Shown piece by piece: positions 24,389 through 28,622 of a stretch of 64,000 bases of DNA. Numbering within the stretch: the first letter of the stretch is position 1; every line of letters begins with the position of its first letter. The DNA is from Zoogloea sp. GTDB taxonomy: Bacteria; Pseudomonadota; Gammaproteobacteria; Burkholderiales; Rhodocyclaceae. The translations under genes were made by a program, and so were the position numbers. Location of the stretch: assembly GCF_009026175.1 (NCBI RefSeq), contig NZ_WBTZ01000002.1; one strand, given 5' to 3'. The notes beneath the pieces were generated by a model, which did no database searches, had not been told where the DNA came from, and saw only the letters and a program-made list of their open reading frames with translations.

Positions 24389-25432
24389 CTAAAGCGACCT
24401 CTTTCTCAACTGAGCCAGCTCAGCCAGTGCTTCCGCCAAGGACGCCTCGGCTTTCTGGGCCCTGACAGTCTCAGCCAGACGAACCTCTTCCACGGCCCGC
24501 GCCCGCGCCTCGGCGGCTGCCACGGCCGACTCCTTGCCGTGGGCGGCTTCGCTGGCCACTTTGAGCTGGGCCTGAAGCCGCTCGATCCGTCCCTCGGCCG
24601 CAGCCAGGGAGGTTTCAGTCTGCCGGGAACGCGAGACAGCCTCCCGCAGCGCGGCCTTGGCCTCCTCGGTCTGCTCCCGCAGGCGGGCCTCCCGATCTTC
24701 CCGGTTGGCCAGTTGCTGGCGCATGGTGGTGATCTCTCCCAGCTTCTCCTGGCGGACCTGATCGATCTGCTTCAGCAGCATGTCGCGATCGAGGGCGCTG
24801 CGTTCCTGCTCTTCCTTGATCGCCGCGCTGTAGCGGTCGCGATCGCTCTGCAGCAGGCGGGTGAGGCGTTCGGACTCTGCAGCGAATTTCTGCTCCCGTT
24901 GCTCGGCAGCTTCATCGAGCAGCTTGACCCGGGTTTCCAGCCCTTCGCGCTGGCGCAGGAACTCCAGCGCCTGATTGCGCAGGTCGCTGATCGTCACGTC
25001 GCGACTCTGCACTGCGGCCTCGAAGGCCTCTATCCTGGCCGCGGCGGTGCTCGCCTCCGCCTCCATGCGACCGATCTGTTCCAGCGCATCGGCCAGCCGG
25101 GCCTCGATGCTCTTCCGCTCCCGCTCCAGCTCCTCACGCTGGCTGGCGAAGAGCTGCTCGGCGTGCTGCAGGGACAAGGACCAGACCTTGCTCATCAGGG
25201 TGTCAGCCGACGAGACGAGCTCGTCCGGCATGCCGGGAACGCTTCGCTGGCGGAAGAACGCGGCGCCCGTCTCACGCCGCCACTGGTCAATGTAGCGCTG
25301 GACGATCTCGCTGGAGCCCTTGTTGCCGAGCTCGGCATAGACAAGGTTGAAAGACGGATTCTCACCGGCGGCCAGCAACTGGAAACAGATCTGTTCTACC
25401 GCTTCGAACGTGACGCTACTACTGCGAGCCAT
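24389..25432 (-). CDS. KfrA_N-type DNA-binding protein with long coiled coil (TnpT/KfrA-like)
   Basis: N-terminal TFEAVEQICFQLLAAGENPSFNLVYAELGNKGSSEIVQRYIDQWR matches the KfrA_N pattern; the remainder is E/R/A/Q-rich heptads. Confidence 0.78.
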   Translation of the reverse strand: MARSSSVTFEAVEQICFQLLAAGENPSFNLVYAELGNKGSSEIVQRYIDQWRRETGAAFFRQRSVPGMPDELVSSADTLMSKVWSLSLQHAEQLFASQREELERERKSIEARLADALEQIGRMEAEASTAAARIEAFEAAVQSRDVTISDLRNQALEFLRQREGLETRVKLLDEAAEQREQKFAAESERLTRLLQSDRDRYSAAIKEEQERSALDRDMLLKQIDQVRQEKLGEITTMRQQLANREDREARLREQTEEAKAALREAVSRSRQTETSLAAAEGRIERLQAQLKVASEAAHGKESAVAAAEARARAVEEVRLAETVRAQKAEASLAEALAELAQLRKRSL

Positions 25433-25567
25433 GGAACATCCCTCTGTTGCACGATGACATCAAATTTCACATCCGAAAAATAACATACGTGTACGTTCGT
25501 ATAACGTTTAATTTGTAACGGTAAGACGAAGCCACTTCCCTGTGGGCTGTTGTGCCCCGGAGGACTG

Positions 25568-26803
25568 TCAGTCCGGCTTGCTGCCAGCCCACGGCAGGCG
25601 CTGCTTCTGGGACTCGTCGTGCCAGCGCTCTTCCTCTTCGTGAATGTAGCGCTGGGTGGTGCGGGCATCCGTATGCCGGGCATCCTTCTGCACGAAGCGC
25701 TCGTCGATGCCACTATCAAGCTTTGCCGTGATGCCGGTATGACGCCCCCAGTGGGCCGAGGCGGCGCGCAGCTTTTCCTTCTTGTGTTCGGCATCCGGGG
25801 GCAGGAGCTCGGCGGCTGCGAAGAAGATCTTCTTGAGGATCTGGTTCAGGCGCCGGGCCGTGATCGGACTTCCATCCTTCACCGAGACCAGGATTGGCGT
25901 GGTGTCGTCCCGGCGGGGTACCGCGCTCAGCCCCAGGTACTTCCGGTAGCGGATGAGCGCCTGCAGCATGTCGTCAGCCACAGGAACCTTGGCCTTCTTG
26001 CCCCCCTTCCCCACCACATGCCACCACCAGCGCCCCCGCTCTTCACGGAAGCTGTTCATGCGATGGCTTTCCAGTTCGCCGGCGCGGGGGGCGAGCATGT
26101 ACAGCGTGGCAGCGAGAAAGCGGGCTCGCTCGTACTCGTCCCGACCCCGCTCCGCGTCTCGGGGCATGGCCTCGATTGCGGCGGTCACGGCCTGCCACAT
26201 CTGCTCATCCAGGAAGCGCTCGATCTTCTCCACCTCGTCCGTGGAGGCCACGGCACGCAAGGGACCGGCAGCTTCGGCGGACATCTTGCGGCGGCGCTGA
26301 CGGATCAGGCCCAGCGGGTTGCCCATCAGGTAGCCGGCATCGACGAGATAGCGCATCAGGGAGTTGATGGCGGCCATGGCGGTCAGCACCGCGCTCTCGC
26401 TCAGCGGTCCCACGAAAGGACGCCAGCGCTCGGAGACCCGCTCGACCTTGGGGCCGCACCACAGGCTGGCTGGCTGGGGGTCGGCGAGAAAGTTGAGGTA
26501 GCCCTCGAAATCCTGGCGATTCAGGCTGGACAAGGGCTTGCTGCAGTCGATCAGCGCCCACAGGAGCAGGCGTTCGCACTCCCGCTGGTAGATCCGGTAG
26601 GTACCGGGCGAACGGTCGTATTCGGTGAGAAAACAGCGGATGGCCTCCGCATCCGTCCGGGCGGAAATCTGCAGTCGGGCAGGATCGGCCCGATTCTCAC
26701 CGCGACTGCCGTCGAGGTCTGCAGGGATAAGCACCTCGTCGAGCGGGCGAACCGGAATGACGGGAGTCGGAACGGTATTGGGGCTGGGGCTGGGCGAATT
26801 CAT
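25568..26803 (-). CDS. Tyrosine recombinase/integrase with SAM-like N-domain
   Basis: Complete R-K-H-R-H-Y catalytic set: APRAGE, VVGKGGK, AHWGRH, ARHTDARTTQRY; N-terminal TYRIYQRECERLLLW core-binding region. Confidence 0.9.
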   Translation of the reverse strand: MNSPSPSPNTVPTPVIPVRPLDEVLIPADLDGSRGENRADPARLQISARTDAEAIRCFLTEYDRSPGTYRIYQRECERLLLWALIDCSKPLSSLNRQDFEGYLNFLADPQPASLWCGPKVERVSERWRPFVGPLSESAVLTAMAAINSLMRYLVDAGYLMGNPLGLIRQRRRKMSAEAAGPLRAVASTDEVEKIERFLDEQMWQAVTAAIEAMPRDAERGRDEYERARFLAATLYMLAPRAGELESHRMNSFREERGRWWWHVVGKGGKKAKVPVADDMLQALIRYRKYLGLSAVPRRDDTTPILVSVKDGSPITARRLNQILKKIFFAAAELLPPDAEHKKEKLRAASAHWGRHTGITAKLDSGIDERFVQKDARHTDARTTQRYIHEEEERWHDESQKQRLPWAGSKPD

Positions 26804-26847
26804 GCCCGGCAGTTTAGCCGGAGGACCTACCTCGCACGCAAGGGGGC

Positions 26848-26875
26848 TTGCCTCTCATTGGTTACTGTATATAAT
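26848..26875 (+). promoter_or_regulatory. Sigma70 promoter overlapped by the LexA box
   Basis: TTGCCT (26848-26853), 16-bp spacer, TATAAT (26870-26875). Confidence 0.65.
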
Positions 26876-26882
26876 CACAGTC
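26863..26882. promoter_or_regulatory. LexA (SOS) box
   Basis: TACTGTATATAATCACAGTC: CTGT-N8-ACAG core, 16/20 identical to TACTG(TA)5CAGTA. Confidence 0.88.
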
Positions 26883-26976
26883 ATGGCATTCCTGAGCCCG
26901 GGCAGGGAGGAACGCCAGCATTATCTGGCGCAAGAAATGCAAGGCGCCTCAACTGCTTATCTGGAAGGAGTCCAGC

Positions 26977-27150
26977 ATGGAAACCCTGATTTGTCGCATC
27001 CTCATGGCAAGTGGTCTGGTCGTTGGCGTTCTGCTGGCAGGCGGTCAAGGCATGCAGGCGGTGGTTCCGGCCCTGCTTGCCCTGGTCGGTGTCGCCCTGC
27101 TCCGCCGTGTGGCGCCGTCGCTGCCCTGGCGTCTGGGCCGTCACTTCTGA
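26977..27150 (+). CDS. Small 57-aa predicted two-helix membrane protein (not in ORF track)
   Basis: AAGGAG RBS 6 nt before ATG; METLICRILMASGLVVGVLLAGGQGMQAVVPALLALVGVALLRRVAPSLPWRLGRHF; fills the gap between promoter and convergent ankyrin gene. Confidence 0.7.
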   Translation: METLICRILMASGLVVGVLLAGGQGMQAVVPALLALVGVALLRRVAPSLPWRLGRHF

Positions 27151-27183
27151 CCCGGCGGGTGGGCCGCTTGCGGGCCTGTTCTT

Positions 27184-27852
27184 TCAACGCCCTTTGGCCG
27201 CCCGCGCCTTGCGCTCCGCCTGGATGAGGCCAGCAATGTCCGTGTTCCGGCTCTTGATGGCCCAGCTCTCGGCGCTTTCCTTCTGGTCATTCAGCAGGTC
27301 GAGATCGGCGCCCGCCTTGAGCAGGCGGATCACGACCTCCTCGTGCCCGTTACGCGCAGCAAACATCAGGGGCGTGGCCTGGTTGGGGGCCTTGGCGTTC
27401 GGGTTGGCGCCTTTGGTCAAGAGCAGGTCAACAATCGCCAGGCGGCCTTCGAAGGCTGCATACAGCAAGGGGTTCCAGCCCTCGTGGCGGAAATCGGCAC
27501 CGGCCCCGAGCAGCAGACTGGCTACTTCGGTATGCCCCTTCAGGCTGGCCAGCATCAGTGCGCTATCGCCGGCCGCGTTGCGTGCATCAAGCTTGATGCC
27601 GCGCTGGCGCAACAGTTCCGCCACCACCTTGGGCTGGTCCTCACGGGCCGCCAGGATCAGCAGGCTGTTGCCGTTCTCGTCGGTGGAGTTCACATCCATG
27701 CCCTTGGCCACCTGGCGGGAGACTTCCCTCGCATCCCCCAGCTTGGCGGCATTCAGAAGATCGTCGAGGGTGTCGGCACTGACGGGCAGGGACAACTGCA
27801 TCGCCACCAGGGCGGTGAGCAGGTGGCGGAAGCGGGGTCGGGGTGAGTTCAT
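27184..27852 (-). CDS. Ankyrin-repeat protein with signal peptide
   Basis: Repeated GNSLLILAA / GDSALMLAS / GWNPLLYAA / QATPLMFAA ankyrin motifs; overlaps the tatD stop. Confidence 0.9.
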   Translation of the reverse strand: MNSPRPRFRHLLTALVAMQLSLPVSADTLDDLLNAAKLGDAREVSRQVAKGMDVNSTDENGNSLLILAAREDQPKVVAELLRQRGIKLDARNAAGDSALMLASLKGHTEVASLLLGAGADFRHEGWNPLLYAAFEGRLAIVDLLLTKGANPNAKAPNQATPLMFAARNGHEEVVIRLLKAGADLDLLNDQKESAESWAIKSRNTDIAGLIQAERKARAAKGR

Positions 27853-28622
27853 GACGGTCTGGCGTCCTTGAATAACCTGAAGAAATTGTTCGTGGTGGCC
27901 TCTGCGATGGTGGGCAGATTCGCGCCACGGGCATTGGCCACAGCCTCCGCTACATGGCGTACGTAAGCGGGCTGGTTGGTCTTGCCCCGGAAGGGCATGG
28001 GAGCCAGGTAGGGCGCGTCGGTCTCCACCAGCAGCCTGTCGAGGGGAACAAAGCGCGCGACATCCCGCAGAGCTTCAGCGTTCTTGAAGCTGACGATGCC
28101 CGAGAACGAGATGTAGAACCCCAGGTCCAGGGCTTGTTCAGCCACCTCACGGCTTTCGGTGAAGCAGTGCATCACGCCACCCGGCTGATCGGCCCCCTCC
28201 TCCTTCATCAGGCGCAGGGTGTCTGCTGCGGAGTCGCGGGTGTGGATGATCAGGGGCTTGTTACAACGCCTTGCCGCACGGATATGAGTGCGGAAGCGTT
28301 CGCGCTGCCACTCGGGAGCATCCTTATGCCAGTAGTAGTCGAGCCCGGTCTCGCCGATGGCGATCACTTTCGGGTGTGCGGCAAGCTCGAGCAGGCGCGC
28401 TTCGTCGGGCTCTTCCACCTCGGCATTGTCCGGGTGCACGCCGACCGAGGCGAACAGGTTGGCATGGCGTTCGGCGAGGCCGATCACGCCGGCCAGGGTC
28501 TCGAGCTTCACGCTGACGCACAGGGCGTGGGTGACGCCTTTTTCGGCCATGTTGGCCAGCATGGCGTCCTCGTCGGCGATCAGGTCGGGAAAGTCGAGGT
28601 GGCAGTGGGAGTCAACGAGCAT
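27849..28622 (-). CDS. tatD: TatD-family DNase
   Basis: DSHCHLD, IGETGLDY and ETDAPY motifs. Confidence 0.95.
   Translation of the reverse strand: MLVDSHCHLDFPDLIADEDAMLANMAEKGVTHALCVSVKLETLAGVIGLAERHANLFASVGVHPDNAEVEEPDEARLLELAAHPKVIAIGETGLDYYWHKDAPEWQRERFRTHIRAARRCNKPLIIHTRDSAADTLRLMKEEGADQPGGVMHCFTESREVAEQALDLGFYISFSGIVSFKNAEALRDVARFVPLDRLLVETDAPYLAPMPFRGKTNQPAYVRHVAEAVANARGANLPTIAEATTNNFFRLFKDARPS

Follow-up and report, generated by a model that had tools for sequence, protein, structure and literature searches.

The 64-kb window analyzed here, a stretch of 64,000 nt from contig NZ_WBTZ01000002.1 of Zoogloea sp. (assembly GCF_009026175.1), contains a 57-aa open reading frame (ORF), METLICRILMASGLVVGVLLAGGQGMQAVVPALLALVGVALLRRVAPSLPWRLGRHF, on the plus strand (26977-27150, with the stop codon at 27148-27150 included), whose predicted product is a helical-hairpin protein of the inner membrane. 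An earlier note on this DNA had read the locus as a small gene for a two-helix membrane protein under LexA repression, and our analysis bears this core reading out: the operator, promoter and ORF are conserved, the ORF shows purifying selection, and the promoter is of the type found at lexA and recA. To judge from its sequence and that of its orthologs, the ORF is very probably a translated membrane protein gene repressed by LexA.

The promoter proposed for the ORF, with a TTGCCT -35 hexamer (26848-26853) and a perfect TATAAT -10 hexamer (26870-26875) on the plus strand, was found at exactly these positions both by reading the sequence and by a promoter scan; with 16 nt between the hexamers, it is a near-consensus sigma-70 promoter. 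As the earlier note had also claimed, the -10 hexamer lies inside a LexA (SOS) box, the 20-mer TACTGTATATAATCACAGTC (26863-26882), which has 16 of 20 matches to the E. coli consensus and whose palindromic core, CTGTATATAATCACAG (26865-26880), has the form CTGT-N8-ACAG. Since the bare CTGT-N8-ACAG pattern is not rare in 64 kb (one occurrence in the window compared with 0.72 expected, which is not significant alone), the case for an operator rests on the promoter scan, the rank of the box within the genome and its conservation. The scan, which covered 26600-27400, returned a single sigma-70-like site with 10 of 12 matches, compared with an expectation of 0.2. The box was found at all 32 Zoogloea loci, 105-124 nt upstream of the ATG, and the -10 hexamer read TATAAT at 27 of these loci and TATACT at five. 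The -35 element (genus consensus CTTGC followed by C, A or G) stood at a fixed spacing from the -10 at 26 of the 27 TATAAT loci, the exception being CTTACC at L032. When the 32 loci were stacked on the box without gaps, CTTGC and the 16-bp core were at least 90% conserved, as opposed to 35-45% for the flanking columns. Joint conservation of the ORF and the SOS box, which had been suggested as a check, was thereby observed directly, with box, -35 and ORF kept together in all 32 loci examined.

The genome encodes LexA and, within its 5.44 Mb, contains 27 CTGT-N8-ACAG sites, those with AT-rich spacers preceding recA, dnaE2, the gene for an umuD-like S24 peptidase, a radical-SAM gene and a VOC/glyoxalase gene. 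When scored with a position weight matrix built from six boxes, the box of the small ORF among them, that box reached 28.3 bits and ranked fourth of the seven genomic sites with at least 18 bits; the others were those of the recA, dnaE2, umuD-like, radical-SAM and VOC genes and one further site. The lexA box itself, CTGTATAAAATTACAC, has one mismatch and lies inside the lexA promoter, CTTGCA-17-TAAAAT, which has the same design as the promoter of the small ORF. Across the order Burkholderiales, the operator CTGTATATAMTNACAG occurred in 48 of 401 genomes and a reversed control pattern in none; the gene downstream, where it was read, was usually lexA or recA, with TTGnnn about 17 nt upstream. 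Because the same arrangement of operator and -10 precedes lexA and recA, the small ORF shares the promoter-operator design of the master SOS genes. From the conserved operator that overlaps the -10, and from this match in design, we infer that the promoter is directly controlled by LexA.

Several further observations concern the regulon. The predicted sites map to positions C196:10909, C284:5153, C173:56878, C177:22252, C293:10385, C93 (about 11300) and C265:7286 on the contigs of G000, the radical-SAM gene is PA0069-like and divergent from a KdpD-like kinase gene, and a further predicted LexA box in the genome reads TGCTGTATGTATTTACATTT. The operator with a built-in -10, CTGTATATAATNACAG, recurs in the order as a lexA/recA promoter design (L065-L094). 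A quick scan found no obvious ORF preceded by a Shine-Dalgarno (SD) sequence downstream of the operator at L065, L068, L071-L074, L080, L087 and L092-L094, and these loci may hide small genes.

The box is only 60 nt from the ATG of a divergent gene for a 411-aa tyrosine recombinase (PF00589; 25568-26803, minus strand), which raises the alternative that it mainly serves this recombinase, together with its KfrA-like neighbor, or has no operator function, the small ORF then being expressed independently of DNA damage. Consistent with some use in this direction, the minus-strand reading of the box contains an extended -10 in 27 of the 32 loci (TGTGATTAT here, TGTAATTAT in most species), and some LexA-dependent divergent transcription may start there. 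Against it, the conserved CTTGC of the -35 keeps a fixed register with the plus-strand -10 and a constant distance from the box, whereas the gap between the box and the start of the recombinase differs from species to species. Moreover, the recombinase has a conserved -10-like element of its own, TAAACT (26811-26816; TACACT in some species), 7-8 nt before its ATG in nearly all loci; this position and the absence of a Shine-Dalgarno sequence suggest a leaderless recombinase mRNA. Finally, 27 loci with recombinase homologs from elsewhere in the order, one homolog being 72% identical, were all without an SOS box at the place upstream where one would be expected, and the single box-like match among them (L044) overlaps the start codon; on these results we rejected the idea that the box travels with the recombinase family. 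We consider a box that mainly serves the recombinase, or that does not function, improbable; as the layout of the promoter elements has it, the operator is that of the small ORF rather than of the recombinase.

A strong ribosome-binding site predicts translation of the ORF, with AAGGAG (26965-26970) as the Shine-Dalgarno sequence 6 nt before the ATG at 26977; the core of this element (AGGAG) is nearly invariant among orthologs. A single strong match to the ORF was present in 31 of the 32 other Zoogloea genomes and none was found outside the genus, its database relatives all being labeled Zoogloea. Counting this genome, 31 of 33 genomes of the genus have an intact ORF: in G017 (locus L032, G017:C154) a deletion has left only the first 21 codons, which now run into the 3' end of the convergent ankyrin-repeat gene (27184-27852, minus strand), with the SOS box still in place, and in G024, an 86% complete genome, the ORF was not found. 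At L031 (G019:C1) the ORF is lengthened to 106 aa by a non-homologous tail. The median pairwise ratio of nonsynonymous to synonymous divergence (dN/dS) was 0.165 with a mean dS of about 1.2, variable sites comprised 52 of 54 third codon positions compared with 29 of 54 second positions, and the other five frames contained stops in several or most orthologs. By these substitution patterns, the ORF is a protein-coding gene under purifying selection; it is single-copy and syntenic, and is inherited vertically like a core gene. The gene had been described as unannotated, which does not hold for its orthologs, listed in NCBI as hypothetical proteins. Its description as a new betaproteobacterial gene is correct in that the family is undescribed and occurs in a betaproteobacterium, but too broad in scope, as the family is confined to Zoogloea plus one distant metagenomic relative.

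The two hydrophobic helices, GxxxG motif and basic C-terminal tail noted earlier were all recovered. AlphaFold2, supplied with the family alignment, predicted helices at residues 2-21 and 29-45, in agreement with hydropathy. The sequence has a grand average of hydropathy of 1.14, a neutral N-terminus, an uncharged loop (GGQGMQ) and a C-terminal tail with a net charge of +4. According to this model and the positive-inside rule, the protein should form a helical hairpin in the inner membrane with both ends in the cytoplasm and the loop in the periplasm. Invariant residues are G13, G17, A21, G23, P31, L34, R43, P47-x-L49-P50-W51 and R55, of which G13, G17 and A21 form a GxxxGxxxA zipper in helix 1. 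The basic tail carries the conserved motif RRVAPSLPWR. The best-conserved segment of the protein lies outside the membrane; a juxtamembrane motif conserved in this way suggests a specific protein partner.

Searches of Pfam, NCBIfam and PHROG gave no family match at E<0.01, and the matches beyond that cutoff were at chance level, including a weak match of the peptide to NBD_C (PF17042, E = 0.049). The record name of a 59-aa ortholog, P0002, in the Joint Genome Institute database is "uncharacterized protein YgbK (DUF1537 family)", and we suspect that this label stems from the chance-level NBD_C match and is spurious. When 1.84 billion representative proteins were searched with a profile, only nine clusters came up. 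The most distant of these, P0041, is a 47-aa metagenomic protein encoded divergently to a gene for an SOS-response-associated peptidase (SRAP, PF02586), and it is located at 1290-1600 of L064, between the SRAP gene and an apparent tRNA gene. The intergenic region shared with the SRAP gene contains two adjacent SOS-like boxes with one mismatch each, CTGTCTATTTTTTCAG and CTGTATATCTGTACAT, 55-80 nt upstream of P0041. The link between this peptide family and an SOS operator would thus hold in a second genomic context, although these boxes could be those of the SRAP gene, a possibility that counts in favor of the recombinase reading above. The family, its two-helix architecture and its tail motif are new; the LexA-controlled small membrane protein is a known kind, so that the finding adds to an established pattern and does not overturn one.

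How such a protein could act after DNA damage can be outlined from these features. In an undamaged cell, a LexA dimer bound to the palindrome that holds the -10 would exclude RNA polymerase, occlusion of the -10 by LexA being the standard SOS mechanism. DNA damage would lead to RecA-stimulated self-cleavage of LexA and free the promoter, and the resulting monocistronic mRNA would carry a leader of about 94 nt and the strong ribosome-binding site. The 57-aa product would enter the inner membrane as a helical hairpin, with the GGQGMQ loop periplasmic and both ends cytoplasmic, and there bind a membrane component of the divisome and delay division. It would in this way be a lineage-specific effector of an SOS checkpoint, taking the place of SulA, for which neither this genome nor most of the genus gave a match. 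The SulA profile (PF03846) had no match in the peptide, in this genome or in 25 of the 33 genus genomes, and its matches in the other eight lie within open frames of 261-317 aa that are presumably ImuA-like. This failure to find SulA is one reason why we slightly favor a role as a division inhibitor over one as a TisB-like toxin, a preference that stays short of even confidence. The complete chain from LexA release to division arrest is proposed just as tentatively. The single-copy, core-like inheritance of the gene and the conserved motif outside the membrane also speak for this role. In being a small membrane protein restricted to one lineage, the product resembles the known SOS division inhibitors (PMC6051672, PMC4211646, PMC13396833).

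Several points weigh against a role in division. Nothing in the sequence ties the protein to the divisome, the confidence of the AlphaFold2 model is moderate (predicted local distance difference test score 66), and a leader kept at about 100 nt would be more usual in the mRNA of a type I toxin. In addition, absence of SulA is common outside Gammaproteobacteria and hence is weak evidence, and the gene is dispensable, since it is truncated in G017 and was not found in the incomplete G024. The sequence does not discriminate between the three options offered in the earlier note, namely toxin, persister factor and division inhibitor.

Among the known division inhibitors, the closest parallels are SidA and DidA of Caulobacter crescentus, inner-membrane proteins induced by the SOS response or by damage (PMC4211646). 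Like SidA, the Zoogloea protein is small, hydrophobic, probably LexA-repressed, lineage-restricted and encoded by a single-copy chromosomal gene in a host apparently without a functional SulA equivalent. Unlike it, the Zoogloea protein has two predicted helices in 57 aa, whereas SidA has 29 aa and one transmembrane helix and targets FtsW and FtsN, and there is no homology between the two. YneA of Bacillus subtilis, SosA of Staphylococcus aureus, ChiZ and DivS are also LexA-controlled, small and membrane-anchored, and they too are poorly conserved between lineages (PMC6051672, PMC13396833, PMC6851548). These proteins, however, combine one transmembrane helix with an extracellular domain (LysM in YneA), in place of which the Zoogloea protein has a loop of only 6-7 residues, and our family searches found no homology to known SOS division inhibitors or to a LysM domain. 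That the hairpin is a SulA-independent effector of an SOS division checkpoint in Zoogloea, with an architecture (a glycine-zipper helix plus RRVAPSLPWR) unlike that of known inhibitors, is a more specific proposal, and we regard it as somewhat more doubtful than a division role in general.

A different outcome of LexA release is suggested by tisB/istR-1 and dinQ/agrB of E. coli, which, like this gene, have a LexA box in the promoter, a long 5' leader and a very small hydrophobic product in the inner membrane. On such a type I toxin-antitoxin-like model, the peptide would oligomerize through its zipper, dissipate the proton-motive force and induce dormancy or persistence, with its translation restrained by the long leader, an RNA antitoxin or both. 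The small size, strong hydrophobicity and LexA control of the peptide fit this model, as does the invariant GxxxGxxxA zipper, which is typical of self-associating helices. Other properties of the protein do not: TisB and DinQ have 27-29 aa and one helix and show no sequence similarity to the Zoogloea protein, the two predicted helices contain no charged residues, unlike TisB, no toxin family was matched in the searches above, and the single-copy, core-like inheritance of the gene also argues against a toxin.

The leader offers some points in favor of a toxin. It is predicted to span about 94 nt (26883-26976, plus strand), the start being placed from the position of the -10, and its length is conserved, with 92-111 nt between the end of the -10 and the ATG in the 27 TATAAT loci, while its sequence is poorly conserved. 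The first transcribed bases, (U/C)AUCG(A/G), are conserved, and about 18 orthologs allow them to pair with UCGAUG at the start codon; pairing of the 5' end with the start region was mildly enriched, with a mean duplex z-score of -0.53 and 13 of 32 below -1. In the minimum free energy (MFE) structure of the window's own mRNA, the SD region is paired with UGGCAUUCCU at the 5' end, and in the clade to which the window belongs, the Shine-Dalgarno sequence is instead the possible partner of a 5' UUCCU. Control by fold-back of the 5' end, as in type I toxin mRNAs, is possible on the basis of these pairings.

The structured leader described earlier was confirmed only in part. Both of its hairpins are present in the sequence, CGCCAG-CATTAT-CTGGCG at 26913-26930 and the SD-enclosing CTGGA-AGGAG-TCCAG at 26961-26975 (both plus strand), but the first is not kept outside the closest species, and the arms of the second occur only in the four closest species (L001-L004), with identical sequence and hence no covariation. 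The MFE of the leader was ordinary (z-score of -0.26 relative to shuffles), RNAalifold found no consensus structure among 31 ortholog leaders, and opening the region of the Shine-Dalgarno sequence and AUG required no more energy than with shuffled leaders (mean z-score of -0.14 for 32 orthologs). Most orthologs have, between -45 and -25, a small GC hairpin with YCAA after it; its stem differs in sequence from one to another, and it too was no more stable than shuffles (mean z-score of -0.39). An Rfam scan of 26000-28000 at E<=1 gave no match.

The search for an RNA antitoxin gave a similar picture. No positionally conserved sigma-70-type promoter was found opposite the leader or the ORF in the 32 loci, and no second locus complementary to the transcript was found in the genome. 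The 33-nt spacer between the ORF and the stop codon of the convergent ankyrin gene (27151-27183) contains no canonical terminator that we could find, so antisense RNA has no evident origin other than read-through from the ankyrin operon. The tisB and dinQ loci combine an RNA antitoxin with an inhibitory leader, whereas the Zoogloea locus yielded neither a detectable antitoxin promoter or complementary locus nor statistical support for leader structure, so the analogy drawn with these loci in the earlier note found no support. We consider a toxin of the TisB/DinQ type unlikely, if still a serious competitor to division control.

A further possibility is that the gene encodes an SOS-induced small membrane protein with some other, non-toxic role, either as an MgrB-like modulator of a transporter, protease or sensor kinase, or as a holin-like protein that promotes limited lysis and release of extracellular DNA in this floc-forming genus. 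The evidence for regulation and membrane location is shared with the division-inhibitor model, and the conserved cytoplasmic motif, with its suggestion of a specific partner, would suit a modulator, although no candidate partner gene is linked to the locus. For the holin variant, the two predicted transmembrane segments, cytoplasmic ends and basic C-terminal tail correspond to the topology of class II holins, and one ortholog has a weak match to a holin PHROG (E = 0.09). The resemblance to class II holins and pinholins such as S21 of phage 21 extends to length (about 60-70 aa) and glycine-zipper-type packing, the shared features being predictions on the Zoogloea side. The locus nevertheless lacks an endolysin, a spanin and any lysis cassette or prophage context, its neighbors are core genes, its PHROG and Pfam matches are at chance level, and its control would be directly by LexA rather than by a phage repressor. 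Taken over both variants, a non-toxic role of this kind seems to us slightly less probable than a toxin.

The division-inhibitor model, by comparison, addresses a gap in what is known of these bacteria. Each characterized lineage uses its own small membrane protein for SOS division inhibition; to our knowledge, no such inhibitor under SOS control has been described for most betaproteobacteria, and a literature search found nothing on the SOS response of Zoogloea. The gene is a clean candidate for this function in Zoogloea, a key floc-forming genus of activated sludge and wastewater, and because its operator is of the E. coli type, its regulation lends itself to direct tests in lexA strains of E. 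coli. If it is a checkpoint effector, it would provide a first handle on division arrest after DNA damage in Rhodocyclaceae-type betaproteobacteria; if it is instead a depolarizing toxin, TisB would gain a counterpart with two helices and no antitoxin. In both cases, it would represent a new protein family in the core of a poorly studied SOS regulon.

The ankyrin-repeat gene is the last of a holB-pilZ-tatD-ank cluster conserved across the genus, and its synteny is kept in 31 of the 32 loci. The recombinase belongs to the core genes of Zoogloea: its identity is 81-97%, its synteny is kept at all loci and it is more conserved than the ankyrin neighbor, which rules it out as the integrase of an island; it looks like a domesticated recombinase. 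It is adjoined by a gene for a 347-aa KfrA_N coiled-coil protein, the pair occupying 24389-26803 on the minus strand. Elsewhere in the order, homologs of the recombinase are sporadic, and some are on small contigs that may be plasmids.

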